Positions 13,592-48,865 are shown, counted from the stretch's first letter. The stretch is DNA of 64,000 nucleotides from an uncultured Gammaproteobacteria bacterium (GCA_964395625.1 CAYNAR010000003.1:5857-69856); one strand, 5' to 3'. Made by a program: numbers and translations. Notes: generated by a model from the sequence alone, not told the origin.

Positions 13592-14911
13592 ATGGAACCA
13601 GCAATCAGAGCCAGAAACATGCAAATCGTCTACAACCTTGGAAAGAAAAACGAGTTCAAGGCGATTTCTGATTTTTCTATAGACGTTTTTCCTGGGGAGT
13701 TCATTTCATTCTTTGGTCCTTCCGGATGCGGTAAATCTACGGTTTTCTACTCTATTTTAGGAGTTTTAAAACCATCTTCCGGGGAGATATTGGTGAACGG
13801 CCAGAATCCTTATTCTTTTTCTCCGCTCGAGATGGTCAAATATCAAGCCAAGACCATCGGCATTATTTATCAGGCTTTTTTTCTTATTCCTTCCTTGTCG
13901 GTCATAGATAATGTCGCCTTACCACAGACTTTTTTGGGAACTCCTTTCAGCAAGAGAAAGAAGAGGGCGCAGGAGTTATTGGATCGTTTCGGTGTGGGAA
14001 CTAAATCTGAGACATATCCGGCGTTGCTTTCCGGAGGTCAGAGCCAAAGAGTCTCCGTCGCTCGCGCCATGGTGAACAATCCGGATATTTTATTGGCCGA
14101 CGAACCTACCGGTAATTTGGACTCTAAGTCTTCTGATCAAGTCATGAATTATCTGATGGAATTATCCGATCGCGACAAGAAGACGGTTATTATGATTACG
14201 CATAACGCCGCCCAGCTTCATTATTGCCATCGCGTCTTTTACATGAAGGATGGAGCGCTATTGCGCGTCGTCCCAAATCCTGATCGTCAGCAGATAGCTA
14301 AATTCGACAAGCAGAAGGTTTTGGTGACCGAGATAGAGATATTATCCAAAATTTATCCTTATTCACAACCGGAAGAGTTGAAGGTTAAGAGTATTATCAA
14401 CTATTTAACTCAGGATTTGGACTTTATGCAGTTGGATAGATTAGAGAAGGCTACGGCTAAAATGCTTTCCAGAAAAATAAGCCGAGAAGCGTTCTATGAT
14501 TATTTGAAAGTCCCAATTTTAAATGGTGGTGTCGGTTTGACCGAAGATCGCGCTCAAGCGATGTCTTCCAAGATAGATCAAATATTGAAGCAGTCGGAGG
14601 ATGTAAGGCGCTATAGGCGCCGTATGAACGCCGGACTTTTCTATAATCGCGAAGATAAGCTGATTAGTGATATACTATTCTATATAATAGAAGAGTCTAA
14701 GGTTTTTTTGACCAGAGAGATGAAGATGCGCTTGAAACAGTTGGTTAGGGATCGTGTTTCTGGGTTGATTAGAAAGGAAGAGCTTGAGGAGGTGTTGAAA
14801 AAACCAATCGAGGAAAGGGGATTGGGCTTCGATCGCGATACGATGTTTAAGGTGGTTTCTTATTTTGAGAAGCTTTTAACGCAAGGAGTCGATACGACCA
14901 ATAAATCTTAA
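13592..14911 (+). CDS. ABC transporter ATP-binding protein (MacB/LolD/FtsE-like NBD) with a C-terminal helical, charged extension of about 210 aa.
   Basis: Walker A 'GPSGCGKST', signature 'LSGGQSQRVSVARA', Walker B 'ILLADEPTGNLD', H-loop 'ITHN'. The residues after about aa 225 have no ABC motifs. Confidence 0.92.
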   Translation: MEPAIRARNMQIVYNLGKKNEFKAISDFSIDVFPGEFISFFGPSGCGKSTVFYSILGVLKPSSGEILVNGQNPYSFSPLEMVKYQAKTIGIIYQAFFLIPSLSVIDNVALPQTFLGTPFSKRKKRAQELLDRFGVGTKSETYPALLSGGQSQRVSVARAMVNNPDILLADEPTGNLDSKSSDQVMNYLMELSDRDKKTVIMITHNAAQLHYCHRVFYMKDGALLRVVPNPDRQQIAKFDKQKVLVTEIEILSKIYPYSQPEELKVKSIINYLTQDLDFMQLDRLEKATAKMLSRKISREAFYDYLKVPILNGGVGLTEDRAQAMSSKIDQILKQSEDVRRYRRRMNAGLFYNREDKLISDILFYIIEESKVFLTREMKMRLKQLVRDRVSGLIRKEELEEVLKKPIEERGLGFDRDTMFKVVSYFEKLLTQGVDTTNKS

Positions 14912-14913
14912 TT

Positions 14914-16107
14914 ATGATTAGAGTAGACGATACATTCGCTTTGGCGACCAGAATGTTCCGCACTAGGCCGATGAGAACTTGGCTTACTATTCTTGGTATT
15001 GGTGTCGGTATTTCGGCCGTCGTCGTCTTGGTCGGACTTGGTTATGGTCTACAGAAATTATTGCTCGAAAAGATCGTTTTCGGCGAGGCGATGCTTTCTT
15101 TGGATGTCGTCACGCCACCATCGCAAATCATTGTCATAGATAAGAATAAGTTGACTGAATTCAGCGATATGTCCAATGTCGAGGATATAGCCCCTCTCGC
15201 TAGCTTCAGTTCTTCGGTTACTTATGGCGATTTGACATCGAGCATAATGCTCAATAGTGTCAATTCCAATTATTTTCGTTATGCCGGTGTGCGTGTTTCC
15301 GAGGGTGATTTCTTTGCTGATAACGAAAAGGATCGCGTGGTTCTTTCGTCTGCCGTTTTAAAGCTTTTCGGCAAGGAGCCGAAAGATATGATAGGTCAAT
15401 ATATCTCGATAAAAGTATTAATTCCTTCTCCCGATGGCAAAGTGCAAGAAACCCCGCTTAATAAACAGTATAGGGTAAAAGGTGTCGTCGACGACGAAAC
15501 ATCGCTTTTCGCCTATATGCCATTGGAAGAATTATCGAGCCAGGTCTCCATTCCTTTCTACGAAAGAGTCAGAGTTAAAGTCACCAACAGGGAGGTTATA
15601 AATCAAGCCGAAAAAGAATTTCTTGATAAGGGTTTTATAGTCAACGCTTTGTCTAAGACCGTCGAGCAAGCCAATAAGATATTTACAGGCATCCAAGTAA
15701 TGTTGGCCGTCTTCGGTGGTATTGCTCTCGTAGTTTCCGCCATCGGTATGTTTAACACCATGACCGTTACTCTTTTGGAGCGTACTAAAGAAATAGGTAT
15801 TATGCGTACTATCGGTGCGTCGAACGCCACTATTATGATATTGTTTTTGTCAGAGGCTATTATCATGGGATTTTTTGGAGGATTGTCCGGGGTTGTGATT
15901 GGTGTTAGTGGTGGCCTGGGGTGTAATTTGGGTCTTTCTTTATTAGCCAAGAAAATGGGCGGTGAAGCAGTGGGTCTTTTTGATTTTCCTTTGACATTTT
16001 TGACTTTTTTGATAGTATTTTCAGCTTTCTTGGGTGCTGTGACCGGTTGGTTTCCGGCCAAGCGCGCCGCCACCCTTAATCCGTTGGACGCCATTAGGTA
16101 TAGTTGA
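14914..16107 (+). CDS. ABC transporter permease, FtsX/MacB family (N-terminal TM, extracytoplasmic domain, C-terminal 3-TM FtsX domain).
   Basis: Typical 'LR..P.RT.LT.LGI.(I/V)G(I/V)..VV' N-terminus and C-terminal '(K/R)EIGI(M/L)R..GA....I..(L/I)F..E(A/S)' followed by 'P(A/S).RA(A/S)...P..A(L/I)R'. There is a 2-nt gap to the upstream NBD gene. Confidence 0.92.
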   Translation: MIRVDDTFALATRMFRTRPMRTWLTILGIGVGISAVVVLVGLGYGLQKLLLEKIVFGEAMLSLDVVTPPSQIIVIDKNKLTEFSDMSNVEDIAPLASFSSSVTYGDLTSSIMLNSVNSNYFRYAGVRVSEGDFFADNEKDRVVLSSAVLKLFGKEPKDMIGQYISIKVLIPSPDGKVQETPLNKQYRVKGVVDDETSLFAYMPLEELSSQVSIPFYERVRVKVTNREVINQAEKEFLDKGFIVNALSKTVEQANKIFTGIQVMLAVFGGIALVVSAIGMFNTMTVTLLERTKEIGIMRTIGASNATIMILFLSEAIIMGFFGGLSGVVIGVSGGLGCNLGLSLLAKKMGGEAVGLFDFPLTFLTFLIVFSAFLGAVTGWFPAKRAATLNPLDAIRYS

Positions 16108-17368: not shown

Positions 17369-17415
17369 ATTGGTAGTAATAATATGCTGTGGATAAGTTT
17401 ATCCATTCATGCTAT

Positions 17416-19179
17416 ATGGGAAAGAAAATAAAAGAAAAAGCAAAAAAGTCATTGCCTTTATTCCTGATGATATGTCTGGTGAATTTATTTTTCATGGGCT
17501 TTTCTTTTAATTTGAATTTTGATTTAGTCGGATTGAATCAGAATCGCGGTTTTTTGGATTTTGGGCGCGATGTTAAGGCCGATCAAGCCTCGACTACGGT
17601 AACGGTTATGAACGCTCCGCCTTGGTTCACTGTGGCTCCGGCGGAAAATCCATCTTCTACCTCGACTACTCCGGTTAATGTTGGCGCGAGTATCGGTTTC
17701 CAAGGTACTGGAACTGATGGAGAAGGTGATGATTATTGGTTTATAGTCTGTACGACAACTCAGGCTACGTCAACGATCGCTGCTCCTGCTCCGACTTGTG
17801 TCGGCGGAAACTATCTTTGCAGATCGAATAAGGCGAGTTCGACCGTGCAGGCTACTTGTACTTATAATAGCGTCAAGAACGTAGTATCGGAGACGCAGGT
17901 TTGGTATGCCTTCGTTTGCGATGACCATGCCGGAGACCCTCGTTGTAGCGTTGTAGGGGCTCAAGGCTCCGGTGATAGCGGGAGTCCGTTTTACGTGAAT
18001 CATTCCCCAACTCTTGTAAACGCTTATACTTCGGTCGATAATCAGGCTCCTGGAGGAACCTTCACGATATATGCAGAATCTACGGATACAGATAGTGCTG
18101 GCGGAGTCGATCAGATAGAGATGTACGCCTGCTCGACCAATGCTTGGACACTTTCCGGTGGATGTACGGCAACGACTCTTTGCACGGCTTCATCCACGTC
18201 TCCGGACGTCAGTTGTCAATATACGGATACGGCACCTACCCAAGACCAGGCTTATAACTATTGGGTTTTTATAAAAGATTGGCATGAATTGACTGGCATC
18301 GGCAATGGTGATACCTCCACTTATACGATAACTAACGTCGCACCAGTCGTTTCCAACGTTACTTTGAATGGTGGTGCGAATATAGGGTTGAATATTAAAA
18401 ACGCTCCTGGCATGGATGTATTAATAGGGTCCGTTAGTGTGACCGATAATAATGGTTGTCAGGATGTATTGACCGCCACCAGTACTGTTTATTTGGGTTC
18501 TGTGGCAGGTGGTGCGAATTGCGCGGCCAATGATAACAATTGCTACAAAACACCAGCAGCATTTTGTTTCGTAACCGCTTGCGATGCTGGTCCAGATATC
18601 GATGCGACAGTTACAGTGACTTGCAGCACCACCATGGCTTTTCATGCCGTTCCTACCGATGCCGACGCTGCATCGGCTGCAACCTCTTGGTTTGCCAGAA
18701 TAACAGCTTGGGATGAAACGACTTTCGGCTCTGGAGATTATAACACTCTTAATGGCGTCGAAGTTATTTCTACGGCCGCTTTAGAGGTGACGCAGACTTC
18801 GATAGATTATGGAATAATACAAGCCGGTTTGGATAGCGGAACAAAAAATTCTACAACCACGGTAGTCAATTATGGAAATACCCCGATCGATACCGCGCTT
18901 TCCGGCATGGACATGTTACGTGAAGGCATTGGTCCTGAATTAATAGGAATAGAAATGCAACAATGGAGTTTGAGTAACTTCGTTTACGGAGGTGGAACTA
19001 TAATGTCCTCGACAACCCCCTCTACAGCTGATACCGTAATAGGACGTCCGACGAGTGCGGTTGATGTGGTTGACGATGTGTATTGGGGAATCGGATTGCC
19101 GAACAGCATACCATCGGCCGATTACGAGGGTTACAACATCTTCACTGTCGTGGAGGATTTGGATGGAAACTGGAATTAG
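17416..19179 (+). CDS. Secreted Cys-rich protein, a free-standing paralog of the C-terminal ~560 aa of the giant protein.
   Basis: The ORF track starts at GTG 17389. The ATG at 17416 gives 'MGKKIKEKAKKSLPLFLMICLVNLFFMGF', a signal or anchor sequence. It is colinear with giant-protein residues encoded at about 10350-11906, for example 'WYAFVCD', 'SPF(K/Y)(I/V)NH.P', 'PGG.FTI.A...DTD', 'Y.C(R/S)TN', 'YTI(N/T)NV.PV', 'LNGG..I.LN(L/I)K', 'V.VTD.NGCQ', 'TAALE(I/V)...(T/S)ID(F/Y)G', 'VVNYGN(S/T)P(L/I)D', 'YWGIGLP'. Confidence 0.85.
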   Translation: MGKKIKEKAKKSLPLFLMICLVNLFFMGFSFNLNFDLVGLNQNRGFLDFGRDVKADQASTTVTVMNAPPWFTVAPAENPSSTSTTPVNVGASIGFQGTGTDGEGDDYWFIVCTTTQATSTIAAPAPTCVGGNYLCRSNKASSTVQATCTYNSVKNVVSETQVWYAFVCDDHAGDPRCSVVGAQGSGDSGSPFYVNHSPTLVNAYTSVDNQAPGGTFTIYAESTDTDSAGGVDQIEMYACSTNAWTLSGGCTATTLCTASSTSPDVSCQYTDTAPTQDQAYNYWVFIKDWHELTGIGNGDTSTYTITNVAPVVSNVTLNGGANIGLNIKNAPGMDVLIGSVSVTDNNGCQDVLTATSTVYLGSVAGGANCAANDNNCYKTPAAFCFVTACDAGPDIDATVTVTCSTTMAFHAVPTDADAASAATSWFARITAWDETTFGSGDYNTLNGVEVISTAALEVTQTSIDYGIIQAGLDSGTKNSTTTVVNYGNTPIDTALSGMDMLREGIGPELIGIEMQQWSLSNFVYGGGTIMSSTTPSTADTVIGRPTSAVDVVDDVYWGIGLPNSIPSADYEGYNIFTVVEDLDGNWN

Positions 19180-19193
19180 GTAAAATATTTTAA

Positions 19194-19222
19194 AGAGCGT
19201 CTTTATAAGACTCTCTTTTTTG
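19194..19222 (+). terminator. Rho-independent terminator.
   Basis: agagcgtc..gactctct stem (1 mismatch) followed by a T-run. Confidence 0.55.
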
Positions 19223-19380
19223 TTTAAAAAAAGCCATAAAAACAAAACAATACGATAATAGTTTTCCCCAGATTATTCCCTTTTTCAAGGTTTGCATTTG
19301 TTGGCTTAATATTGTATGATTTAGGATGTGATAGTATACCCATTAAAATTATTAGCATGGGTATTTTACGGTTAAAGGAA

Positions 19381-20430
19381 ATGCTGAGAAAATTAGCGCC
19401 TTTCCTAATTTTATTATTGTTCATCGGTTGGGCCTCTCCGGCTTCAGCCGGTTTTGGCGTATCTCCTCCTCGCATTAAAAATCATCAATTGACGCCTGGT
19501 TCTATTTATCCGGTCAAGATAATGCTTTTACGCTCTTCTGCCGAAGAAGATCTTCGTGCTGTTGTAAAGTTTACGGCTCAAGAGATGGAGCCATGGATAA
19601 AAATAGACAAGGGGGAGGAATTCGTGTTGCCGGCCGGTGAATTACAGGTGCCGATGACGGTTACTTTTAATATTCCAAAGAATGCCGAACTTGGTAATTA
19701 TACCGGCAATATAAATATAAAAGTCCTTCCCAAAGATGGTGGTTCCGGTGTCTCTATCGCGCTTGGTGCCAGAATAGATATTGATATAGCTTTGACTAAT
19801 GTATCAAATCCTGATTTTTTGGTTAGAACCGTCTCTGTTCCTGACTTTGAAAAGCTTGGTTCTCCGTGGAATTGGAAGTTTTGGTCGAAGATTTTTGATA
19901 GTTTTTTCTATCGCGTTAGAGTTTTGGCCAGTGTGGAGAATACTAGTAGTGTAGATACTGCACCATCAAAGATAAGTCTAGAGGTTTATGACTTGGTAAA
20001 AAGCAAAGTGCTAGAGTATGGAGAGGATAAGACGATGGAGAAAATCAAGGCTTTTTCGACGGGCAACGTAGAAGCTTCTTTTCCTACGAAGCTGCCGCCG
20101 GGTCAATATTGGGGTAAAGTTAAGGTTTATAAAGAGAATGAAATAGTCAATTTTTACGAGATAGCTTTCTCGGTTGAAAAGCCGGGTGTTCTTGGTGCTG
20201 GAGCTAGGTCTCTTGGTGCCGGACCTTGGTTGCTTTTAGGTGGACTGGTTTTTGTTTCCGTCTTTTTAGTGGCGTTCCTTATAAAGATAAGATTCTGGCG
20301 TTTTGTATTCGTTTTACTTCTTCTTCCGACCAAACCATTAGCTAAGAATGTCGGCGTTGCCGCTAGTGGTATAAACAAAGGTTTCTGGAGATGGATAGCT
20401 AAACAGGCTGAAAAGCATAAGGATAAATAA
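19381..20430 (+). CDS. Surface protein with a signal peptide, 'GFGVSPP' N-terminus, Ig-like ectodomain and C-terminal TM plus basic tail. The architecture is DUF916-like, which is an inference.
   Basis: The preferred start is ATG 19381 ('MLRKLAPFLILLLFIGWASPASA|GFGVSPPRI'); the ORF track start at 19312 is less likely. The C-terminal 'PWLLLGGLVFVSVFLVAFLIKIRFWRF' is a TM segment. Confidence 0.65.
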   Translation: MLRKLAPFLILLLFIGWASPASAGFGVSPPRIKNHQLTPGSIYPVKIMLLRSSAEEDLRAVVKFTAQEMEPWIKIDKGEEFVLPAGELQVPMTVTFNIPKNAELGNYTGNINIKVLPKDGGSGVSIALGARIDIDIALTNVSNPDFLVRTVSVPDFEKLGSPWNWKFWSKIFDSFFYRVRVLASVENTSSVDTAPSKISLEVYDLVKSKVLEYGEDKTMEKIKAFSTGNVEASFPTKLPPGQYWGKVKVYKENEIVNFYEIAFSVEKPGVLGAGARSLGAGPWLLLGGLVFVSVFLVAFLIKIRFWRFVFVLLLLPTKPLAKNVGVAASGINKGFWRWIAKQAEKHKDK

Positions 20431-20444
20431 ACCAAGGCGACTTT

Positions 20445-21749
20445 ATGTTAAGAAAATATAAAATATTGCCAATATTTTTTTTCTGCCTTTTTTTTGTTTT
20501 TTTTAGCTTTTCTTCGGAAAGGGTTGGTATTAGACAGGTTTTGGCGGATGAGAATATTCCAACTTTTTTGCAGATATTGTTGATTTGTGGAGATGGTGTT
20601 AAAGACCCTCTTTGGGAATTTTGTGACCCAGGTGACGTTTTAATGGGTTATTTGCCAGATACCGGCACATCCACTTGCCAGACGATGAATAATCCTCATA
20701 CCGGTTCTCCTTATGTTTCCGGTAGATTGGGCTGTACTAGCGATTGTACGGCTTTTTCGACAAGTACTTGTTATACTTGCGGTGACGGGTTCAAGGAAGG
20801 TCCCGTGGAGGAGTGCGATGGCACTGATTTTGGTGGTGGAACGACTTGCATGGATTACGGTTACACTAGCGGTAATTTGCATTGTGCTCCGGGTTGTAGA
20901 TTGGATCTTAGCGAGTGTGTGATTATTGGAACTACGGAACCAAAGGAAGGTGAGACTCCGACTACTGGTGGCGGAGGTGGTCTTTCCGGCGGTTCATCTG
21001 GTTTTTTGCCAGGACAAAAGATAGAGCCTGATAAGACGGTTGTCATTATAAAGGGAAAATCTTACCCTAATTCAGACGTTAGAGTCTTAATCGACGGTAA
21101 AGTGGTCGGAATCGTCAAAGCCGACTCCGCTGGAGATTTTCGCTTCCAAGAAGATGACATAACCCCAGGAATAGCCACCTTTGGTCTTTGGACGGAGGAT
21201 GAGAGAGGTTTGAAGTCGACTTTAGTGACAATAACTTTCCGCATAGCCTCTAAGTCCGTGACTACGATATCCAATATATATCTTTCACCGACAATCGATG
21301 TCGACAAGAGGAAGGTGGCTCAGGGTGAGGATATAAAGATATTCGGTAAAAGCTCCCCAAGCGTCAATTTGCAGGTTAATGTCAATTCTCTGGTCGAAAA
21401 CATAGTCACTACCACAAGTAATACCGTAGGAGACTGGACACTGTCTTTCAATACGAAGAGTCTCGAGGAAGACTTTCATTCCGCCAAAGCAATGATAAAG
21501 TTGAAAAGTCAGGAAGGTGTGATCGAGAGTAATTTTTCTCGAAGTGTTAGTTTTTATGTCGGTGTCGGGGGTCCGGATGTGGGAGAGTGCGGTATAGCTG
21601 ATTTGAATTGCGATGGCGCTGTCAATTTGGTGGATTTCTCTATTTTGCTTTATAATTGGAATACGACCGAGGCTAAGGCCGATATAAATAAAGATGGTAA
21701 AGTAGGGTTACCGGATTTCTCTATAATGATGTTCTATTGGACCGGATAG
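20445..21749 (+). CDS. Secreted protein with two Cys-rich 'CGDG..E..EECD' repeats, a Gly-rich linker, two Ig-like/carboxypeptidase-regulatory-like domains and a C-terminal dockerin-type double EF-hand.
   Basis: Signal 'ILPIFFFCLFFVFFSFSS'. 'CGDGVKDPLWEFCDPGD' and 'CGDGFKEGPVEECDGTD' match the myxococcal-type cysteine-rich repeat pattern. The C-terminal 'DLNCDGAVNLVDFSILLYNW....ADINKDGKVGLPDFSIMMFYW' is two D-x-N-x-D-G-x-x-x-x-x-D calcium loops, each followed by a helix, as in dockerin. Confidence 0.8.
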   Translation: MLRKYKILPIFFFCLFFVFFSFSSERVGIRQVLADENIPTFLQILLICGDGVKDPLWEFCDPGDVLMGYLPDTGTSTCQTMNNPHTGSPYVSGRLGCTSDCTAFSTSTCYTCGDGFKEGPVEECDGTDFGGGTTCMDYGYTSGNLHCAPGCRLDLSECVIIGTTEPKEGETPTTGGGGGLSGGSSGFLPGQKIEPDKTVVIIKGKSYPNSDVRVLIDGKVVGIVKADSAGDFRFQEDDITPGIATFGLWTEDERGLKSTLVTITFRIASKSVTTISNIYLSPTIDVDKRKVAQGEDIKIFGKSSPSVNLQVNVNSLVENIVTTTSNTVGDWTLSFNTKSLEEDFHSAKAMIKLKSQEGVIESNFSRSVSFYVGVGGPDVGECGIADLNCDGAVNLVDFSILLYNWNTTEAKADINKDGKVGLPDFSIMMFYWTG

Positions 21750-21772
21750 ATTTAAGTTTTAAATTTTAAATT

Positions 21773-22795
21773 ATGAATAATAAATTGATATTTTTAATTT
21801 TTTTGCCGTTGCTTCTTCTTATTCCGAGTTCGACTTTTGCTGCGACATTGTATCTTGATCCGGTTTTAGGCAAGCTGGGTCCGCAAGACGCCGTAGAGGT
21901 TAAGGTCAAGATAGGTGTGGCCGATGGAGAATGTATTAACGCGGCCAATATAGTTTTGAATTTTCCATCGGACGTCTTAGAGGTTAAGGATTTTATTTCC
22001 GGAGATTCATTGTTCTCTTTGTGGGTGGATAGACCAAACGATGAAAAAATAAAAGAAGCTAACGAAAAAGGAATCATTTCTTTTTCCGGTGGTTTGCCTG
22101 GTGGTTATTGTGGTAGGGTTTCCGGCGATCCCGGTGATAGCAATGTTTTAGGGGCGATAGTTGTCTCTCTTAAAAAACCCATCGTTTTTAGTAAAGCAGG
22201 TATGGATTTTTCCTCGAATACGGAAGTTTTTTTGAATGATGGTAATGGAACTTTTGCGAATATCTCTACGCAAGGAATGAATTTTGAGATAAGTAGCAAG
22301 GCATCTGGACAGCCAAAAGACGATTGGGGTAGGAGGATAAGGGAAGATAAAATTCCTCCGGAAACTTTTGTTATAGAGATAAGTAAGGATGACAGAATAT
22401 CGGATGGTCGTTATTTTATCGTCTTCTCTACTACCGATAAGCAGACAGGAATAGATCACTATGAGGTTTTGGAGAACAAGAAGGATGACGCGACCTCTTG
22501 GTTGGATAATCTGGTCGGTGTCTTAAGGAGAGCTTTGAATAAGCAAGAAAAGGAATCTTCTTTTGAAGTCGCCCAATCGCCGCATATCCTTAAAGATCAA
22601 AATTTAAAAAGTCAAATTAAAGTCAAAGCGGTAGATCGTGCCGGGAATGAGAGGGTTGTGGAATATCATAATAAGAGTAAGAGTGTCGCGACGGCTAGTG
22701 GAAAAATATCATGGCCGGTCATCGCTTTAGCACTTCTCGTCTTCGGCGTACTGATGTCTGTTTTTGCGGTGTTTAAAAGGATTAGAAAGGGGTAA
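21773..22795 (+). CDS. Cohesin-like domain protein with a signal peptide and a C-terminal TM anchor.
   Basis: 'ATLYLDPVLGKLGPQDAVEVKVKIGVADGECINAANIVLNFPSDVLEVKDFISGDSLFSLWVDRP...ISFSGGLPGGY' fits the cohesin-domain pattern annotated in CPR proteins. The 'IPPETF' Ig-like domain follows. The C-terminal 'WPVIALALLVFGVLMSVFAVF' is a TM segment. Confidence 0.75.
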   Translation: MNNKLIFLIFLPLLLLIPSSTFAATLYLDPVLGKLGPQDAVEVKVKIGVADGECINAANIVLNFPSDVLEVKDFISGDSLFSLWVDRPNDEKIKEANEKGIISFSGGLPGGYCGRVSGDPGDSNVLGAIVVSLKKPIVFSKAGMDFSSNTEVFLNDGNGTFANISTQGMNFEISSKASGQPKDDWGRRIREDKIPPETFVIEISKDDRISDGRYFIVFSTTDKQTGIDHYEVLENKKDDATSWLDNLVGVLRRALNKQEKESSFEVAQSPHILKDQNLKSQIKVKAVDRAGNERVVEYHNKSKSVATASGKISWPVIALALLVFGVLMSVFAVFKRIRKG

Positions 22796-22840
22796 TTTTG
22801 ATTTGCTAGCGTGTTTATAAAAGTATATAATAATAACAAG

Positions 22841-24610
22841 ATGATACAAGGAGTAAAAAATAAAATAATATTGTTTGGGTTCGCGTTTTTGTTTTCTTTG
22901 TCGGTTTTTTTTCCGATAAACAATGCTTTTGCGGCTGATGTCTCTTTGTATTTTAGTCCGTCGGCAAACACCCAGACTGTTGGTGGTAGATTTGTCGTTT
23001 CCGTCAAGATAAATACTAACGGGCAGGCCGTCAATGCGACTCAGGGTGTTATTTCTTATGATAATGAGGCTTTGAGGGTTGTCAGCGTCTCTGGCAATAA
23101 CTCGGTTTTCGCTTTTTGGACCGAAGAACCGTCTTTCTCTAATCAAAATGGTTCTATAAAATTCGGAGGAGGAGTTCCAAGTCCCGGTTATAATGGAAAT
23201 GGAGGACAGGTTTTTGCCATAACTTTCCAAGCGTTGCGTCAGGGGGCGGCAGAGGTTAGTTTTGTCTCCGGTTCCGTGTTGGCTAATGATGGTAAGGGTA
23301 CTAATGTTTTGACTGGTATGGGTGGAGCTAATTTTTCCATAAATCCGGCCGTCGAAAAAAAAGGTGAGCAGATATCGAATGTAAGGGTTGCCGGGAAGAA
23401 TGATTCCGTGTCGATTGGTCCGGAGGTTTTTTCCGACACCGATCCTGACCAGGACGTATGGTATCGCGACAGACAGATAAAATTCTACTGGAAGATTCCA
23501 GAGGGGTCCGAAGGGGTGAGTGTGGCATTTAATAAAAGCGCGGACACCGATCCGGGTGATAATTCTGTGGGTATTATAGATAATAAAGAGTTTATAGCCG
23601 ATTCCGATGGAGTCTGGTATCTGCATCTCAAGATAAAGAATAAAGACGGCTGGAGTGGTATCACTCATCGTCCCGTAAAGATAGACACTACACCTCCTGA
23701 GTCTTTCGAGGTTTGGAGTAAACAAGAGGATCCGAACGATTGGCCGACGGTTTTTTTTAAGACCGTCGACAAATTATCCGGTGTCACTAAATACGCCTTG
23801 GTCGTCAATAGCTTGAAATCGGAGCCATACATAGTCTCTCCGGATAAGGATTCTTTAAAGGTGACTAATTTGGAAGTCGGCCACCATACAGTTATGGTAA
23901 GAGCGGTGGATGAGGCTGGCAATGAGAGTTTTTCGACTATAGAATTTGAGATAAAGCCGATATTGGAGCCCAAGATAGATGATTTTTCAAAGGAATTGGC
24001 TCCGGATGATCATTTCTTCGTCTCTGGAACCTCGATTCCTGATGCCGCTATAAAATTATCAGTCAAAGACACTGGCAGTGATAGGGTTTTGACCTATTAT
24101 TTGAACGCCGATAAGAGCGGTCGTTGGTCGTTCGTGATGCCCAATGGTTTGAATGAAGGGCGCTATATATTTTGGTCGGAGGCGACCAATCCTAATGGGT
24201 TGGCCAGTCGCTCGTCGAGTGTCTTTAGCTTTTTAGTTACCCCGCCGGTATTCGCTCGTTTTGGTACCGTCGTCGTCGATTATTTCACGGTTTTCGCTTC
24301 TTTGTTGTTCGTTTTGGCTTTGATAATCTTCTTGGCCGTTCTAACGACAAAGATGTTACGTAAGAAATTGAGAAAGGAGACTGTCGAAATAGAGCAGGTT
24401 TTAGAGAAGAATTTAGAAGTTTTGCGCGTCGCCTTGGCAGAAGAGGCCTTGTCATTAGCCAGGACCGCCAAAGATAAGAATAAGAGCGGTGCTCGTAGTG
24501 ATATAGTCAAAGAGGTAGCTTGCTTGAAACAAAGATTGGATGAGAGAATAGATAATACCGGCCGTCGAATAATGAAAGAGATTAAGGACGTAGAGAGAAT
24601 TTTAAAATAA
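22841..24610 (+). CDS. Cohesin-like domain protein with a signal peptide, Ig-like domains, a TM segment and a cytoplasmic coiled-coil tail.
   Basis: The ATG at 22841 is preferred over the GTG at 22811 ('MIQGVKNKIILFGFAFLFSLSVFFPINNAFA'). 'VSLYFSPSANTQTVGGRFVVSVKINTNGQAVNATQGVISYDNEALRVVSVSGNNSVFAFWTEEPSFSNQNGSIKFGGGVPSPGY...VSFVSGSVLANDGKGTNVL' is a cohesin-type pattern. TM 'FTVFASLLFVLALIIFLAVL' is followed by a K/E-rich tail. Confidence 0.8.
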   Translation: MIQGVKNKIILFGFAFLFSLSVFFPINNAFAADVSLYFSPSANTQTVGGRFVVSVKINTNGQAVNATQGVISYDNEALRVVSVSGNNSVFAFWTEEPSFSNQNGSIKFGGGVPSPGYNGNGGQVFAITFQALRQGAAEVSFVSGSVLANDGKGTNVLTGMGGANFSINPAVEKKGEQISNVRVAGKNDSVSIGPEVFSDTDPDQDVWYRDRQIKFYWKIPEGSEGVSVAFNKSADTDPGDNSVGIIDNKEFIADSDGVWYLHLKIKNKDGWSGITHRPVKIDTTPPESFEVWSKQEDPNDWPTVFFKTVDKLSGVTKYALVVNSLKSEPYIVSPDKDSLKVTNLEVGHHTVMVRAVDEAGNESFSTIEFEIKPILEPKIDDFSKELAPDDHFFVSGTSIPDAAIKLSVKDTGSDRVLTYYLNADKSGRWSFVMPNGLNEGRYIFWSEATNPNGLASRSSSVFSFLVTPPVFARFGTVVVDYFTVFASLLFVLALIIFLAVLTTKMLRKKLRKETVEIEQVLEKNLEVLRVALAEEALSLARTAKDKNKSGARSDIVKEVACLKQRLDERIDNTGRRIMKEIKDVERILK

Positions 24611-24639
24611 AAGCCGCCGCTTTAAAAGGCGGCTTTTCT
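24611..24639 (+). terminator. Rho-independent terminator.
   Basis: agccgcc-gctttaaaa-ggcggct followed by tttt. Confidence 0.75.
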
Positions 24640-24645
24640 GAAAAA

Positions 24646-25323
24646 ATGAAACATCGTTTTTTATTGTTTTTTTTGTTGGTCGCCATGGCTCTGTCCGGGT
24701 GTTCTGCGGAAAAAAATAAGGATGTGTCCGAGCAAGACGACATTCTTTTGGCTCAGGATTGCGGTCTTGATCGTTTTCCTTGTTGCGCATCCGATCCGGT
24801 TTGTAATTTTGGTCAACAATGTTGCGTCGATCCTAATAATAGCAATCGTAATCATTGTGCGGATTCTTGCTCTTGTGGTAAGGAGGATGATTTTTGTTGC
24901 GAGGGGGGTAAGTGCTCGGAAGGGCTTGATTGTCGAGATGGTGTTTGCATTCGTTGCGGAAACGAAGGCGAGGCTTGTTGTCCGAAGGAGATCTCCTGTT
25001 CGGTCGGATTATCTTGTTTGAACGATGAATGCGTGAAATGCGGACTTGTCGGTAATCCTTGTTGTCAAGGTTCTGTTCCGTGTTTAGTCGGCGATGGCGA
25101 GAATAACGAGTGCTTCGCCGGTCTTTGTCGTAGTTGCGGATTTAATGGGGCTCCGGCTTGTGAAGGTGATAAACCGTGTCTTCCGGGGCAGCTATTGACC
25201 GGCAACCGTTGCGAGCGTTGTGGGCAGGATAATCAACCCTGTTGCGCCACATCGAGCGACGCAATTTATGCTTGCGACAAGAAAGCCGGTTTGTCTTGCA
25301 AGCTTGGTTTTTGCGAGAAGTAA
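24646..25323 (+). CDS. Cys-rich repeat lipoprotein with six ~28-35-aa 'CG....CC....C..G..C....C' units.
   Basis: Lipobox 'LVAMALSG|C'. Repeats start at CGLDRFPCC, CGKEDDFCC, CGNEGEACC, CGLVGNPCC, CGFNGAPAC and CGQDNQPCC. About 40 Cys occur in 225 aa. Confidence 0.8.
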   Translation: MKHRFLLFFLLVAMALSGCSAEKNKDVSEQDDILLAQDCGLDRFPCCASDPVCNFGQQCCVDPNNSNRNHCADSCSCGKEDDFCCEGGKCSEGLDCRDGVCIRCGNEGEACCPKEISCSVGLSCLNDECVKCGLVGNPCCQGSVPCLVGDGENNECFAGLCRSCGFNGAPACEGDKPCLPGQLLTGNRCERCGQDNQPCCATSSDAIYACDKKAGLSCKLGFCEK

Positions 25324-25397
25324 TTATTTTGCCACCGAGGTCTCAAAATGTTAAAATAGAAACATAATCCTTTTGTGTTTTAAGGTTTTTTGTTTAT

Positions 25398-26972
25398 ATG
25401 GAGATAAATTTGGATTTAGCCTCTTTTTCCGATTCTTTGATGGTCGCTTTGTCGAATATCGCTAGCGCACCGGATGTTTTTTTAATGAACATGTTTCTGT
25501 ATTTGGGGTGGATACCGATAAGTTTTACCTTCCTTTGGGGTGCTCGTTTGCTTTGGATAGAGTATCGTCAGAATCTTTGGGCTGAAAAGAACGCTAAATT
25601 TACCTTTTTGGCGATCGATATCCCTCGTGGCAACGCTCAATCCCCGAGAGCGGTCGAGAATCTTTTCAGCTATCTGGGCGGTGCGCATGGTTCGACTAAT
25701 CTAATGGACACTTATTGGGAAGGAAAGTTCCAACTCGGTTTTAGCTTTGAGATAATCTCTAATGGTGGATATACTCAATTTTTGATCAGGACGCCCGTTG
25801 CCAATCGTGATTTAGTTGAATCAGCTATATACTCTCAATATCCCGACGCCGAAATAACCGAGGTCGAGGATTATGCCAAGCAATATGCCGATGTCACTTT
25901 TCCTAGTGATAAATACGATATAGCCGGTGCCGAGTTCGTTTTGGTGACCGACCAAGCCTTGCCTATAAAGACTTATCCTGAATTCGAACACCAATTCGGC
26001 GAGCCGGAGACGACCTTCCGCGACCCAATGGCCGCTTTAATGGATCTTTGTTCTTCGCTCAAGCCTGGAGAACAGTTATGGTATCAGATATTGGTCATAC
26101 CGACTGATATGGCTTGGCCTTCTTTCATCGAAGATAAAGTGTCCGATATCTTGAAGGAGAAGAAGAAAGCTAAGCCGACGATCTTTAATGATTTAGCCGA
26201 TCAGGCCATGTCTTTTATAAATGTTGGGGCTAATATGATAGTCGGCGGAGAGCCGGCCGCGCCAAAAAAAGAAGAAAAGAAAGATGATTCTTTGAAGATG
26301 ATGAATTTGAAGCCGAAACAGAAGAAACAAGTGGAGAGTATACATGAGAAGGCTTCTAAGATGCCTTTCAAGATAAAGATTCGAGGTGTGTATTTTGCGG
26401 AGAAGGAAGTGGCTAATAAGGCGAAGGGTTTTGCCGGTTTCGTCGGTTTTATGAAGCAATTCACCGCTACCGATCTTAATGGACTAAAGCCTGACATGGA
26501 TAAGACCGGTACATCGACGGCTTATTTGTTTAAAGACTCCCATCTTAATCAGAAGAAGAACAAGATATTGAAGAACTATATAGCCAGAAGTGGTTCTAGT
26601 GGCCGCCCGACTTTTTATCTTAATGTCGAAGAGCTGGCGACGATTTGGCACTTTCCTATCGAAGGTGTCGTTAAAGCTCCTTTGATACAAAAGACTTCCG
26701 GTCGTAAGGCTGAGCCGCCGATGACCTTGCCTCAGGCGGATCGTTTCGTCAGTGAGGAAAAGATAGAGCCTCTTTTCCTTGGTGATATAGACGAGGAGGA
26801 TGAGAATGACCCTCTATTCTTCGATGAGAAGCCGCAGGAGAAAAAGACCGAGCAGGTCGGTCTTCCTGCTGAATCTTTTCAAACCAGTATTAAAGACTCC
26901 AGCGAAGGAGATGATGATAACCCCTTTTCCGACGAAAAAGGTGCTCCGCCGTCAAATCTACCATTCGCTTAA
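25398..26972 (+). CDS. Membrane protein (N-terminal TM hairpin, large soluble domain, acidic C-terminal tail), genetically coupled to the downstream T4CP-like ATPase.
   Basis: TMs at 'VFLMNMFLYLGWIPISFTFLWGARLLWI'. Conserved-looking 'LAIDIPRGN.QSP.AVEN', 'IYSQYPDAEI' and 'LATIWHFP'. The tail is rich in D/E/K. There is a 9-nt gap to the next gene. Confidence 0.75.
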   Translation: MEINLDLASFSDSLMVALSNIASAPDVFLMNMFLYLGWIPISFTFLWGARLLWIEYRQNLWAEKNAKFTFLAIDIPRGNAQSPRAVENLFSYLGGAHGSTNLMDTYWEGKFQLGFSFEIISNGGYTQFLIRTPVANRDLVESAIYSQYPDAEITEVEDYAKQYADVTFPSDKYDIAGAEFVLVTDQALPIKTYPEFEHQFGEPETTFRDPMAALMDLCSSLKPGEQLWYQILVIPTDMAWPSFIEDKVSDILKEKKKAKPTIFNDLADQAMSFINVGANMIVGGEPAAPKKEEKKDDSLKMMNLKPKQKKQVESIHEKASKMPFKIKIRGVYFAEKEVANKAKGFAGFVGFMKQFTATDLNGLKPDMDKTGTSTAYLFKDSHLNQKKNKILKNYIARSGSSGRPTFYLNVEELATIWHFPIEGVVKAPLIQKTSGRKAEPPMTLPQADRFVSEEKIEPLFLGDIDEEDENDPLFFDEKPQEKKTEQVGLPAESFQTSIKDSSEGDDDNPFSDEKGAPPSNLPFA

Positions 26973-26981
26973 TCATACTCT

Positions 26982-28898
26982 ATGACAAATAGTGAGATAA
27001 CGGTTTTTGCGGAAACGACTTTTCGCAACAAGCGTTTAAAATTCGGCATCAAGACGGACGATAGACGACGCCATATGTATGTGATCGGTAAGACTGGTAT
27101 GGGTAAGTCTACTATTTTGGAAAATATGATTGTCGACGATATCCGTGCCGGTAGGGGAGTGGCCGTCGTCGACCCTCATGGCGACTTGGCCGAGAAAATA
27201 ATGCAATTCATTCCTTCGGAGAGGGTGAAGGATATTATTTATTTCAATCCGGCCGATACGGAATTTCCTATCGCCTTCAATATCGTGGAGCAGGTGGACG
27301 CTAAGGTTCGCCATCTTGTCGCGTCCGGTTTGATAGGCGTTTTTAAGAAACTTTGGGCGGATTCTTGGGGTCCTCGTTTGGAATATATTTTGCGTAACGC
27401 CATCTTGGCGGTTTTGGATTATCCTAACTCAACCTTGCTTTCGGTTATACGTATGCTTTCGGATAAGGTCTATCGTAAGAAGATCGTCGATGCGGTTCAA
27501 GATCCGATGGTCAAATCGTTTTGGCAGAAGGAATTCGCCGGATACGCCGATAAATTTGCCTCTGAGGCCGTCTCTCCTATTCAAAACAAGGTCGGTCAAT
27601 TCTTGTCCAGTTCTTTGATTCGTAATATCATCGGTCAATCCAAATCTTCCATTGATGTCCGCAAGGCCATGGACGAGGGAAAAGTCTTGATCATGAATTT
27701 TTCCAAAGGGCATATAGGAGAGGATAATTCCGCCTTACTTGGTGCGATGATGATTACCAAGATACAGTTGGCGGCTATGAGTAGAGTTGACATACCGGAG
27801 AAGGAGAGGCGTGATTTCTATCTTTATATCGACGAGTTTCAGAACTTCTCTACCGATTCTTTCGCCAATATATTATCGGAAGCTAGAAAATATCACCTCA
27901 GTCTTATTATCGCTCATCAATATATAGAGCAGCTCACCGACACTGTCAAAGCGGCCGTATTCGGCAACGTCGGAACTTTAGTCTCCTTCCGTGTCGGCGC
28001 GGTCGACGCGGAGGAGCTCGTCAAAGAATTCGCCCCCGTCTTCACGGAGGAGGATATTTTGAATCTTCCTAAGTTTGAATTCTATATCAAGTTAATGATT
28101 GACGGTGTTGCCTCCACTCCGTTTTCGGCGAGAGGTCTTTTGCCTCTACGTGAAGACGAGAAGACTCATAATTTGGATAAAGCCGTCGAGTGGACAAGGA
28201 GGAATTACGCTAAAGAGAGGATATTGGTGGAGGAGGAGATTATGCATTCTCATTTTAACGATGATCAACCCATGGCTCATGTCGCTCCAGGGCAAGTTAT
28301 AAATATTCCTTCTCAACCGGCCTCTTTACCGCCGGTGATTAAGGGTGGTTTTCCTCCGGCCATAAAGAACTTCCCATCTTCACCTAGTCAAGCGCCTAGA
28401 GAAATTCCGTCGCCGAAAGAAGAGATAAAATCCATCGCATCGCATGTGGAAAATGTTCCGGTTCAAGCTCCGGTGATCCCAGTGGCTAAGCCTGTAATAA
28501 GGATAGATAAGGACAATTCATCGAGTATCCTCAATGAGGCGATTTGCTCTAATTGTGGTAGTCAGACCAAAGTTCCTTTTAAACCGGATGGCACCAGACC
28601 GATCTATTGTAAAAATTGCTTATCGGAATTGAAGAAGAAAAAGAAGGACGAGATGGACGAACGTAAAAATACGCCACGTCCTAATTTCTCGGAGATATCG
28701 CCATCCGCTTTGGGCAAGGAATTGGACGCCGAGCCGGTGGAAGCCTCAGGATTGTCTTTGTCGACGCTAAAAGAGTCGGCCCTTGTAAATTTTTCTAAAA
28801 ACAGCCATAATCATAAAAATCCATCGCAAGACATGCTTAAAGACGGTCAAATAAAAGAGAAAGAGTTGACCGAAGGCGAGGATATAATATTCGATTAA
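26982..28898 (+). CDS. VirD4/TraG/TraD-like (type IV coupling protein / HerA-FtsK superfamily) P-loop ATPase. It lacks N-terminal TM helices and carries a Pro-rich linker and a C-terminal CxxC..CxxC zinc ribbon.
   Basis: Walker A 'VIGKTGMGKST', 'VVDPHGDL', 'FNP.D.EFP(I)AFN', Walker B 'FYLYIDEFQNF' and 'IIAHQYIEQL' (TraG-D_C-like). C-terminal 'CSNCGSQTKVPFKPDGTRPIYCKNC'. Confidence 0.8.
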   Translation: MTNSEITVFAETTFRNKRLKFGIKTDDRRRHMYVIGKTGMGKSTILENMIVDDIRAGRGVAVVDPHGDLAEKIMQFIPSERVKDIIYFNPADTEFPIAFNIVEQVDAKVRHLVASGLIGVFKKLWADSWGPRLEYILRNAILAVLDYPNSTLLSVIRMLSDKVYRKKIVDAVQDPMVKSFWQKEFAGYADKFASEAVSPIQNKVGQFLSSSLIRNIIGQSKSSIDVRKAMDEGKVLIMNFSKGHIGEDNSALLGAMMITKIQLAAMSRVDIPEKERRDFYLYIDEFQNFSTDSFANILSEARKYHLSLIIAHQYIEQLTDTVKAAVFGNVGTLVSFRVGAVDAEELVKEFAPVFTEEDILNLPKFEFYIKLMIDGVASTPFSARGLLPLREDEKTHNLDKAVEWTRRNYAKERILVEEEIMHSHFNDDQPMAHVAPGQVINIPSQPASLPPVIKGGFPPAIKNFPSSPSQAPREIPSPKEEIKSIASHVENVPVQAPVIPVAKPVIRIDKDNSSSILNEAICSNCGSQTKVPFKPDGTRPIYCKNCLSELKKKKKDEMDERKNTPRPNFSEISPSALGKELDAEPVEASGLSLSTLKESALVNFSKNSHNHKNPSQDMLKDGQIKEKELTEGEDIIFD

Positions 28899-47722: not shown

Positions 47723-48865
47723 TTATTCGGCTATTAATTTTCCCCAGACAGTTTTTGTTGGTGAGGAGAATTTTATTTCCGAGGCGTCGGCCGGCATGAA
47801 TTTTATTATGCTTTGCGGCGAGGCTATTTTTTGTTGTATCTCTTGTTCACCGTTATAGATTATTATTTCGTTCGTGCAGGCCGTAGCACCGCCATCTTTT
47901 ACGATTAATCTTATTGGAAGGCCTTTTTTGATTTTTATGACGTTCGGACGGAAGCCCGAAGAGGTGACCTCTATTTCCACTGTTTGATATTTGTCGGTTG
48001 GTACGGAGTTGGCGAAATATTGTTCGGCGCTGACCTCTTTTTTTCCAGCGGCTTTGTTGATTGGTTTGCTCACTTGTCTTTGCAGTCCGGAATCGGACCA
48101 GCCTCTGCCGGCGGTCAGAAGACCCAAAATGATGATAGTTAATCCGGATATTTTGACGATGTTTTTAATTTTAACGCTGGGCAACGTAGATATAAATGCT
48201 CCGAAAGCGAACATCGTCGGAATCGTGCCGGCGGCGTAAAAAGCCATCGCAAGCAAGCCTTTAATGAAGCTCCCGGTCGATAGAGCGTAGAGTTGCATAG
48301 CCTGCAAAGGACCGCATGGCATAGTGGCGGTTGCTAGACCGATTAGCAATGGAGCTTTCGAGGAATTCTTTTGAAGGATCGCATTGATTGAACTTGTTAG
48401 TCTATCGGGAAGTTTCAGTTTTATGCCAGATAAGAATTTACCGCCCGTGATTATTCTAATTCCCATTACGACTATCATAATGCCGGCGATGAATACGAGG
48501 ACTCCGGAAAAATAGGAGTTTATTTGAAAAGCTGATCCGAATAATCCTAATAATCCGCCAGAGATGGTGTAAGAAAAGAATCTACCGATATTATAGAGCA
48601 GATGGTTTTTTATTTCGATTTTTTGTCCCAAACATAGTTTTTTGGCGCTATAGGAGGCTACGAAGCTGCCGCACATGCCGACGCAATGGAAGGATGCCAG
48701 TAGTCCGATGACGAAGATTATTGGCAAGCCGACATCTTTTTCGTTTAAGCGCCCCATTATAGCGAAGGCCCCTTTATTTGATAATAGGAAGTAAAAGAAA
48801 ATCATAGCTAAAAATAGCGCCAGAAAGGCAATGATCTTCTTTTTGCCGGTTTTTTCGGTGTCCAT
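47723..48865 (-). CDS. Polytopic membrane protein of the DsbD_2 / TauE-SafE-like family with a C-terminal cupredoxin-like extracytoplasmic domain. It is the only minus-strand CDS in the window.
   Basis: 'SFHCVGMCGSFVASY' and 'TMPCGPLQAMQLYA' are paired Cys motifs inside TMs. The C-terminal 'YQTVEIEVTSSGFRPNVIKIKKGLPIRLIVKDGGATACTNEIII' is cupredoxin-like. Confidence 0.75.
   Translation of the reverse strand: MDTEKTGKKKIIAFLALFLAMIFFYFLLSNKGAFAIMGRLNEKDVGLPIIFVIGLLASFHCVGMCGSFVASYSAKKLCLGQKIEIKNHLLYNIGRFFSYTISGGLLGLFGSAFQINSYFSGVLVFIAGIMIVVMGIRIITGGKFLSGIKLKLPDRLTSSINAILQKNSSKAPLLIGLATATMPCGPLQAMQLYALSTGSFIKGLLAMAFYAAGTIPTMFAFGAFISTLPSVKIKNIVKISGLTIIILGLLTAGRGWSDSGLQRQVSKPINKAAGKKEVSAEQYFANSVPTDKYQTVEIEVTSSGFRPNVIKIKKGLPIRLIVKDGGATACTNEIIIYNGEQEIQQKIASPQSIIKFMPADASEIKFSSPTKTVWGKLIAE

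Follow-up and report, generated by a model that had tools for sequence, protein, structure and literature searches.

We analysed a cysteine-rich lipoprotein gene at 24646-25323 on the plus strand of a 64,000-nucleotide stretch of DNA deposited for an uncultured Gammaproteobacteria bacterium (GCA_964395625.1, CAYNAR010000003.1:5857-69856; this whole stretch is called the window). The gene is genuine, and the lipoprotein belongs to a conserved gene family of the ultra-small bacteria of the Patescibacteria, or candidate phyla radiation (CPR). Behind its signal peptide and a linker, the product consists of six related modules of about 28 residues. Paired losses of cysteines among relatives indicate how the six cysteines of a module would be bonded, and the resulting pattern points to a disulfide-directed beta-hairpin (DDH) core. 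Regarding function, we consider a role in the cell envelope as a specific element for binding or scaffolding about as probable as all other readings together (roughly 0.5).

A conserved family of six-module lipoproteins

The open reading frame (ORF) encodes a protein of 225 amino acids (aa), as read from the ORF list and translation. The N-terminus reads MKHRFLLFFLLVAMALSG directly before Cys19, which is followed by a serine; it combines a positively charged n-region, a hydrophobic h-region and a lipobox of the form [LVI][ASTVI][GAS]C, a typical lipoprotein signal. Judged from this lipobox, Cys19 is probably lipidated. It is retained in 51 of 56 aligned homologues, and some of the five that lack it (e.g., P0010 and P0018) carry a hydrophobic N-terminal segment instead. 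The identical protein at NCBI (P0001, 212 aa) is annotated from Met14 (24646-24684 region), so that its signal peptide is missing and it is no longer recognisable as a lipoprotein; the longer ORF of 225 rather than 212 aa is correct, because the homologues show it. Cysteine accounts for 16.4% of the protein, whereas the other long ORFs of the window on the annotated gene strand reach 3.5% at most. The first-pass annotation, made from the sequence by a model, had put about 40 cysteines in 225 aa; the length and the cysteine richness stand, and the count is 37, with 36 after the lipobox Cys19.

A search covering 5.8 billion proteins returned at least 68 homologues of 188-265 aa, all unannotated. 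Those with an organism label mostly came from Candidatus Falkowbacteria or Patescibacteria, with one short contig labelled Elusimicrobiales. In an alignment of 56 homologues with the window protein as its first row (A1), 34 columns were invariant, nearly all of them cysteines. The annotation had allowed that the ORF might not be conserved; with 68 homologues and nearly all cysteines invariant, it is. The window protein shows the features of the family throughout: about 225-250 aa, a lipobox, 8/6/6/6/4/6 cysteines in that order, the motif CCVDPNN and a C-terminal (L)GFC. Relative to a 69%-identical orthologue in locus L007, the ratio of nonsynonymous to synonymous substitution rates (dN/dS) was about 0.07, with dS saturated. 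A search of genome contigs with the single window protein matched the L007 genome only. As the annotation had stated, no family could be named: Pfam gave no match to the window protein at E≤10, NCBIfam gave none at E≤10 except a sub-threshold TraV match on the signal peptide, and the A1 profile returned 0 matches among PDB sequences at E≤10.

The annotation's description of a lipoprotein made of six small cysteine-rich mini-domains was borne out by the lipobox, by six "CG" module starts (aa 39, 77, 104, 132, 164 and 192) and by profile-profile comparison. When the six modules were compared with one another across the 56 homologues, pairwise E-values ranged from 1e-2 to 9e-12, with 11 of the 15 pairs at 5e-5 or below, showing that the modules are related. 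Even the elaborated module 1 aligned with modules 3-5 at E 4e-7 to 8e-6, module 4 with module 3 at 8e-8, and module 6 with modules 2 and 3 at 6e-8 and 4e-10, respectively (hhalign). Tandem Repeats Finder detected no DNA-level tandem repeat in the window gene, only a T-rich stretch in the signal-peptide region. Taken with the profile similarity, this indicates that the modules were duplicated anciently and have differentiated individually. Their cysteine framework is C-x6-CC-x4-5-C-x5-C-x4-C, and consecutive modules are linked by two residues only (C6-x-x-C1). The literal CG..CC pattern that the annotation had assigned to all six repeats fits two of them (Table 1). Non-cysteine motifs specific to the family are VDPNN in module 1, LLNN in module 5, and NQPCC and LGFC in module 6; most of the conserved non-cysteine residues are the Gly, Pro and Leu of a generic structural consensus.

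The module extends well beyond this family. A wider HMMER scan with A1 against 1.84 billion cluster representatives yielded 524 proteins with E≤1e-3, of which 111 had E≤1e-10 and 25 had E≤1e-30. The top matches (roughly E≤1e-45) were full-length or nearly full-length family members of about 230 aa; lower matches were fragments of the family, followed by longer proteins of at most about 1,600 aa in which the 28-residue unit forms arrays. This unit, with the consensus CGxxGQPCCxGxxCxxGLxCxxGxCxx, is present in more than 500 clusters at 50% identity, among them multidomain proteins of bacteria and a single one from an alga. Its fusion partners in the longer proteins are RCC1 propellers, trypsin, papain-type peptidase (peptidase C1), VWA, FG-GAP and other domains; the VWA fusion is the algal protein, from the green alga Ulva mutabilis. 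Of 85 wider relatives, two are recognised by the Pfam families DUF7107, EB or Dickkopf_N, as are two of the 56 orthologues; the 28-aa repeat of the wider relatives has no NCBIfam model. The module is therefore widespread and without a curated model. The annotation's remark that such domains are unusual in bacteria was thus overstated, given more than 500 clusters and the cysteine-rich extracellular proteins reported from CPR bacteria (PMC4736985).

Disulfide pattern and predicted fold

We derived the disulfide pattern from cysteines that are lost together. In module 2, 41 of the 56 homologues have both C77 and C85 (C1 and C3) and the other 15 have neither; the loss of just one of them is never seen. 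In module 3, C104 and C112 (C1 and C3) are jointly absent in two homologues, and C111 and C124 (C2 and C5) in one. The same held when a hidden Markov model (HMM) of the module was run on 213 retrieved proteins. Counting only instances aligned over model states 2-26, a filter that is unable to detect loss of C4 or C6, we obtained 769 modules: 702 with all six cysteines, 44 lacking exactly C1 and C3, 21 lacking exactly C2 and C5, two lacking C1 only, and no further loss pattern. Sixteen of the 44 modules without C1 and C3 lie in six proteins outside the six-module family. Both C1-only losses occur in one protein, P0155, and in the one of these modules that was inspected, the preceding module has an extra cysteine. 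Outside the family, 92% of the segments between CG starts have six or four cysteines. The lost cysteines are replaced by F, Y, T, L and A and by R, N, G, T and D, never by His and never in fours.

These paired losses indicate bonds C1-C3 and C2-C5, which would leave C4-C6 by elimination. They are also the best evidence that the cysteines form disulfides, as the annotation had supposed, rather than metal clusters. The two optional bonds can be missing from whole arrays: P0090 and P0095 carry arrays composed entirely of 4-Cys modules without C2 and C5, whereas the modules in the arrays of P0133 and P0159 lack C1 and C3 and have W or L at the C1 position. Different lineages have therefore given up each optional disulfide independently. 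The C2/C5-less type, seen in module 5 of the family, also occurs in unrelated arrays outside it.

AlphaFold2 run with A1 modelled the whole protein with a mean predicted local distance difference test score (pLDDT) of 88.4 and a predicted template modelling score of 0.66; pLDDT was 60-73 in the linker and above 90 in the modules, and modules 2-3 alone reached 93.6. Every module is predicted to form a single beta-hairpin whose first strand bears C5 and whose second bears C6. Foldseek, which the annotation had proposed for a single repeat and for the array, gave no significant match in the PDB for the array or for a module pair. The non-significant list for the module pair consisted mostly of small toxins (root-mean-square deviation 2.3-3.0 Å over 27-31 columns), among them the inhibitor cystine knot (ICK) and DDH toxins ProTx-I, ProTx-II, aptotoxin VII, Tsp1a, conotoxin TVIIA, LaIT1, U1-LITX-Lw1a and J-atracotoxin-Hv1c (J-ACTX-Hv1c). 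Other non-significant matches were the double-knot toxin DkTx, Dkk1, Dkk4, R-spondin furin repeats, hirustasin and AmFPI-1.

On the covariation and the predicted model, the module appears to be a DDH core with an additional N-terminal loop disulfide, and not a cystine knot, a hevein or a granulin. The hallmark of a DDH is two disulfides stapling the hairpin; here C2-C5 comes from covariation and C4-C6 from elimination, C5 and C6 sit on the predicted strands, and the Foldseek matches are non-significant. The 1-3, 2-5, 4-6 map is the same as the one that huwentoxin-II, a spider toxin with three disulfides, reportedly has. In DDH peptides each hairpin strand bears a cysteine bonded to an upstream cysteine, I-III and II-IV (PMC11891777), and these two bonds would correspond to C2-C5 and C4-C6 of the module. 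Those peptides are secreted singly in animal venoms and target ion channels, whereas the bacterial protein is a lipid-anchored array of six fused modules with vicinal cysteines at positions 2 and 3, and DDH peptides have no detectable sequence homology to the module.

Knottins share with the module six cysteines in about 28-30 residues, a vicinal CC and a C-terminal hairpin bearing the last two cysteines, and in DkTx two such modules are fused head to tail; these toxins gave the best Foldseek partial matches, with a toxin-normalised template modelling score of about 0.6. Knottins have the framework C-C-CC-C-C and the bonds 1-4, 2-5 and 3-6 (PMC4942781), whereas that of the module is C-CC-C-C-C and its inferred bonds would form no knot. 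We therefore rejected the knottin (ICK) assignment, both framework and connectivity being different. A granulin is a 12-Cys unit with four CC pairs and laddered disulfides. Granulin (PF00396) was likewise rejected: Pfam gave no match, each module has one CC, and paired loss points to bonds within modules. The disulfide-knot, granulin or hevein-like spacing that the annotation had seen thus does not agree with the inferred map, which follows neither the 1-4, 2-5, 3-6 order nor a 12-Cys ladder.

A further relationship was to a 4-Cys unit. P0099, which matches the family profile at E 1.5e-18, also matches DUF7107 (six times), EB and Dickkopf_N, and its repeat units, [x]G-x4-C-x5-C-x5-C-x4-C, resemble a version of the module without C1 and C3. 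The orthologue P0063, in which C1 and C3 are lost in modules 2 and 3, scores 26.6 bits to DUF7107 (PF23416) against a threshold of 24.6. The best description of the module is therefore a DUF7107/EB/Dkk_N-type unit elaborated to six cysteines, a link that is new here. The window protein itself matches none of DUF7107 (PF23416), EB and Dickkopf_N at E≤10. Dkk, a eukaryotic Wnt antagonist, also appears on the structural side, with the Dkk1 and Dkk4 structures among the fold matches of the module. We found no literature on DUF7107 or DUF8128 and no relevant literature on cysteine-rich disulfide lipoproteins of Patescibacteria.

The annotation had taken a DsbD_2-like membrane protein at 47723-48865 as a sign of oxidative folding capacity. 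The gene was confirmed, on the minus strand; its product is a membrane protein of the DsbD_2 (CcdA-like) kind that ends in a fused cupredoxin-like domain. Proteins of the DsbD/CcdA type carry reducing equivalents outward and are not oxidases. Since this protein exports reducing power, is encoded on the opposite strand at a distance of 22 kb and is accompanied by no DsbA homologue in the window, it does not document the implied capacity. In locus L009, a DsbA/Thioredoxin_4 gene lies two genes upstream of the orthologue.

Genomic context

We compared the surroundings of the gene in eleven loci, which fell into two main arrangements: type A in five (the window, L001, L007, L011 and L013), type B in five (L003, L005, L008, L009 and L010) and a third type in one (L012). 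The window and each locus contain one module-bearing ORF only.

In type A, surface-protein genes (dockerin, cohesin/Big_13) precede the lipoprotein gene, and a DUF8128 membrane protein and a TrwB/VirD4-like ATPase with a treble-clef zinc finger follow; farther downstream, where the locus reaches, come a GT2 glycosyltransferase and a P-type ATPase. The surface genes are all on the strand of the lipoprotein gene, upstream coverage of L013 being limited. In the window, the 524-aa downstream neighbour has a hydrophobic N-terminal segment and no Pfam match, and its positional counterparts in related loci are DUF8128 proteins; the zinc finger, CxxC-x17-CxxC, lies at the C-terminus of the ATPase. No sigma-70-like promoter was detected by consensus scan between the terminator-like hairpin and the ATG.

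In type B, the lipoprotein gene is followed by genes for a 72-75-aa protein with two transmembrane segments, a protein of about 130-154 aa, a polytopic membrane protein of about 555 aa, a TP_methylase-family protein and a class-I tRNA synthetase (tRNA-synt_1g). The synthetase directly follows the TP_methylase gene; in L009 a NUDIX gene intervenes. The 130-154-aa protein has a lipobox in L003 and L009, and an ECF_trnsprt protein stands in its place in L010; apart from this substitute, the three partners have no Pfam or NCBIfam assignment, and they have no homologue in the 64-kb window, L001 or L007. Intergenic distances go down to 9-33 bp in L009, and most type B loci differ in the genes that lie upstream. 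In the ten loci of types A and B the neighbours are surface or membrane proteins. The theme common to the contexts is the cell envelope or surface, and no one partner is conserved throughout.

Table 1 Positions of the lipoprotein gene, its parts and its neighbours; window coordinates unless a locus is named
Feature	Position	Strand	Basis
Cys-rich lipoprotein gene, stop codon included	24646..25323	+	ORF list and translation, 68 homologues, dN/dS
Signal peptide and lipobox L-S-G-C; Cys19 (24700-24702), predicted lipidated first mature residue	24646..24702	+	Sequence
Variable linker, about 19 aa, between lipid anchor and module 1	24703..24759	+	Weak conservation in A1; pLDDT 60-73
Module 1, aa 39-76, 8-Cys, elaborated, family-specific insertion QCCVDPNNxxxNxCxDxC	24760..24873	+	8 Cys invariant in 56 sequences
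Module 2, aa 77-103, canonical 6-Cys, CGKEDDFCCEGGKCSEGLDCRDGVCIR	24874..24954	+	Fits pattern of first-pass annotation
Module 3, aa 104-131, canonical 6-Cys	24955..25038	+	Fits pattern of first-pass annotation
Module 4, aa 132-163, 6-Cys, longer C4-C5 loop	25039..25134	+	Six Cys all invariant
Module 5, aa 164-191, 4-Cys, without C2 (Ala171) and C5 (Leu184) family-wide	25135..25218	+	Alignment, strand register
Module 6, aa 192-225, 6-Cys, long C3-C4 loop, invariant C-terminal (L)GFC	25219..25320	+	Alignment
Upstream neighbour, 599-aa surface protein, cohesin and Big_13	22811..24610	+	Pfam; syntenic in L001, L007, L011, L013
Downstream neighbours, 524-aa protein and 638-aa TrwB/VirD4-like ATPase	25398..28898	+	Pfam, NCBIfam
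Terminator-like hairpin (24616-24633) and T-run, ending 3 nt before ATG	24616..24643	+	Consensus scan
Promoter-like site between lipoprotein stop and 524-aa gene	25329-25357		Consensus scan
Type B trio, L003	8946-11628		
Type B trio, L005	8799-11543		
Type B trio, L008	9046-11732		
Type B trio, L009	8721-11104		
Type B trio, L010	8702-11270		

Several further features of these loci were observed. Five consecutive same-strand genes occupy 17389-24610 (+) of the window, several with surface domains, including a dockerin protein (20445-21749) and a weak cohesin match (21773-22795). Upstream genes of similar sizes are present in L001, L007 and L011, and L013 has the cohesin/Big_13 gene only. The pairing suggests a cohesin-dockerin surface assembly in a Patescibacterium. 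An ORF of 3967 aa at 6-11909 (+), whose start is 5 bases inside the window, has a high content of Ser, Thr, Asn and Gly with 1% Cys and resembles the giant surface proteins typical of CPR genomes. The UvrD-type helicase encoded at 48972-51437 (+) contains an RNase_T exonuclease domain as an insertion, and the same fusion is found near the L010 orthologue. In L009, a 532-aa protein with a Kazal domain, unusual for bacteria, is encoded at 13830-15428, downstream of the orthologue. The contig of L007/L014 (CAZJPG010000001.1) is labelled uncultured Gammaproteobacteria bacterium despite its synteny with the Patescibacteria-type window, probably a taxonomic mislabel.

Function and meaning

The role to which we assign a probability of about 0.5 is that of an extracytoplasmic lipoprotein with a specific binding or scaffolding task in the cell envelope. 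After export, Cys19 would be lipidated and so anchor the protein on the cytoplasmic membrane, at its outer face. Some 19 residues of flexible linker would then carry about 187 residues folded into the six consecutive mini-domains. Within each, C2-C5 and C4-C6 would staple the hairpin to the preceding loop and C1-C3 would close the N-terminal loop. With links of two residues, the array would probably form a stiff rod resistant to proteases and denaturation, and in this way a partner could be held or recognised in the wall zone or on another cell. We prefer a binding or scaffold role to that of a length-variable passive spacer because the modules are individually conserved, because they carry family-specific motifs and because only 4 of the 56 homologues are without a module.

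Such a role would also be in line with the rigidity or attachment proposed for large cysteine-rich extracellular proteins of the CPR group Peregrinibacteria (PMC4736985). Like the window protein, these are exported and very rich in cysteine. By their description they differ from it, with an average of about 1,650 aa, about 7% Cys and a weak resemblance to cysteine-rich repeats of Myxococcus (PMC4736985), compared with a 225-aa lipoprotein of 16% Cys built on a different module.

Several points weigh against a binding or scaffold role. There is no experimental or homology-based functional anchor: DUF7107, EB and Dickkopf_N offer no transferable biochemical function, and the relatives are all "hypothetical". 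Foldseek returned nothing from the PDB at E≤0.001; the array reached an E-value of 0.23 at best and the module pair one of 0.18. The disulfide map comes from covariation and not from model coordinates, and within it the C4-C6 bond would follow by elimination only. A search of the window with the DsbA of L009 gave no homologue, and no disulfide oxidase was found there. One module is missing in 4 of 56 homologues, so that module number is not absolutely fixed. Finally, the gene context is not constant, and no partner can be named from it.

We weighed five alternatives. In the first, which we consider doubtful, the lipoprotein would be a subunit of an uncharacterised envelope complex with the 72-75-aa, ~150-aa and ~555-aa type B proteins, and the window lineage would have relocated the gene. 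The same four-gene order recurs in all five type B loci, tightly spaced in L009, while the genes upstream mostly differ. However, the three partners are without homologues in the window, L001 and L007, the middle gene of L010 encodes an ECF_trnsprt protein instead, and partners without a family assignment add no mechanism.

Less credible again is a role as an extracellular accessory of a DNA or protein translocation machine formed by the DUF8128 protein and the VirD4/TrwB-like ATPase, comparable to the TraV or VirB7 lipoproteins of type IV secretion. The order of lipoprotein, DUF8128 and TrwB-like ATPase genes is kept in the window, L001, L007, L011 and L013, and the L009 orthologue lies 0.5-6 kb downstream of PrgI-, TraC- and VirB4-like genes. 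Against this, L003, L005, L008, L009, L010 and L012 have no adjoining DUF8128 or TrwB-like gene, and in the window the lipoprotein gene is set apart by a terminator-like hairpin upstream and a promoter-like site before the DUF8128-position gene. Both this machine and the type B complex rest on synteny that is restricted to particular lineages. A direct assignment to TraV (TIGR02747, a 145-position model) was rejected: the match scored 12.3 bits (E 0.2) against a cutoff of 44.75 and covered residues 1-27, the signal peptide, only. The L009 segment at 1586-7458, just upstream of the orthologue, encodes PrgI, TraC-like, VirB4-like ATPase, DsbA/Thioredoxin_4 and DnaB-like proteins.

The lead of the first-pass annotation, a hevein-like or carbohydrate-binding module (CBM)-like lectin array acting on glycans such as host cell-wall sugars, we judge improbable. 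It would suit a small disulfide-rich array on the surface with conserved aromatics (F/Y55, F83 and F222). Hevein has about 40 aa, eight cysteines (1-4, 2-5, 3-6, 7-8) and a sugar-binding triad of Ser and aromatic residues. The modules instead have mostly six or four cysteines and another connectivity, no Ser/aromatic triad recurs from module to module, and Pfam gave no match at E≤10 to hevein/CBM18 (PF00187), which we rejected, or to any CBM; no evidence supported the carbohydrate-binding likeness.

Slightly more improbable still is that the protein acts as a tethered multi-headed inhibitor of proteases or gives rise to toxin- or defensin-like peptides, in the manner of tandem Kazal, antistasin or knottin arrays. 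Tandem arrays of mini-domains are typical of inhibitors, and the best partial fold matches were toxins and inhibitors (DkTx, hirustasin, AmFPI-1). All of these matches are non-significant, however; the two-residue links are without conserved processing sites, making peptide release implausible, no conserved reactive-site-like loop was identified, and a lipid anchor runs counter to a diffusible toxin. Binding of metal by the cysteines (metallothionein-, zinc- or Fe-S-like) instead of disulfides is very improbable: CxxC stands at every module junction (CIRC, CVKC, CRSC, CERC) and CPR bacteria often live in anoxic habitats, but the protein is exported, even cysteine counts dominate per module, and cysteines are lost in specific pairs to non-ligand residues, never in fours and never to His or Asp as ligands.

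We also considered a bolder proposal, which we hold to be unlikely and place between the two synteny-based alternatives. The DDH/knottin/Dickkopf fold class has long been regarded as an invention of animal venoms. The module might instead be an ancient, mostly bacterial and not yet catalogued relative of that class, and the lipoprotein with its fixed six modules a dedicated Patescibacterial surface receptor or adaptor for host attachment, or the external part of the DUF8128/VirD4-like apparatus.

Arrays of small disulfide-rich extracellular modules and cysteine-rich surface proteins of CPR bacteria were already known. New here are a defined, conserved family of Patescibacterial lipoproteins, a widespread and uncurated 28-aa module, its 1-3, 2-5, 4-6 map and its link to DUF7107/EB/Dkk_N. 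The map derived from paired loss is a concrete, testable prediction, and with a curated model of the module many extracellular proteins now called "hypothetical" would receive an annotation. The range of DDH-like mini-domains, which so far consists mainly of arachnid venoms with the recent addition of a sea star, would be extended to bacteria, and such stable mini-domains are of interest as engineering scaffolds. Patescibacteria are considered to live in attachment to other cells, and most of their surface proteins have yet to be characterised. As a compact, conserved and confidently modelled family, the six-module lipoproteins could be expressed and tested for binding partners.

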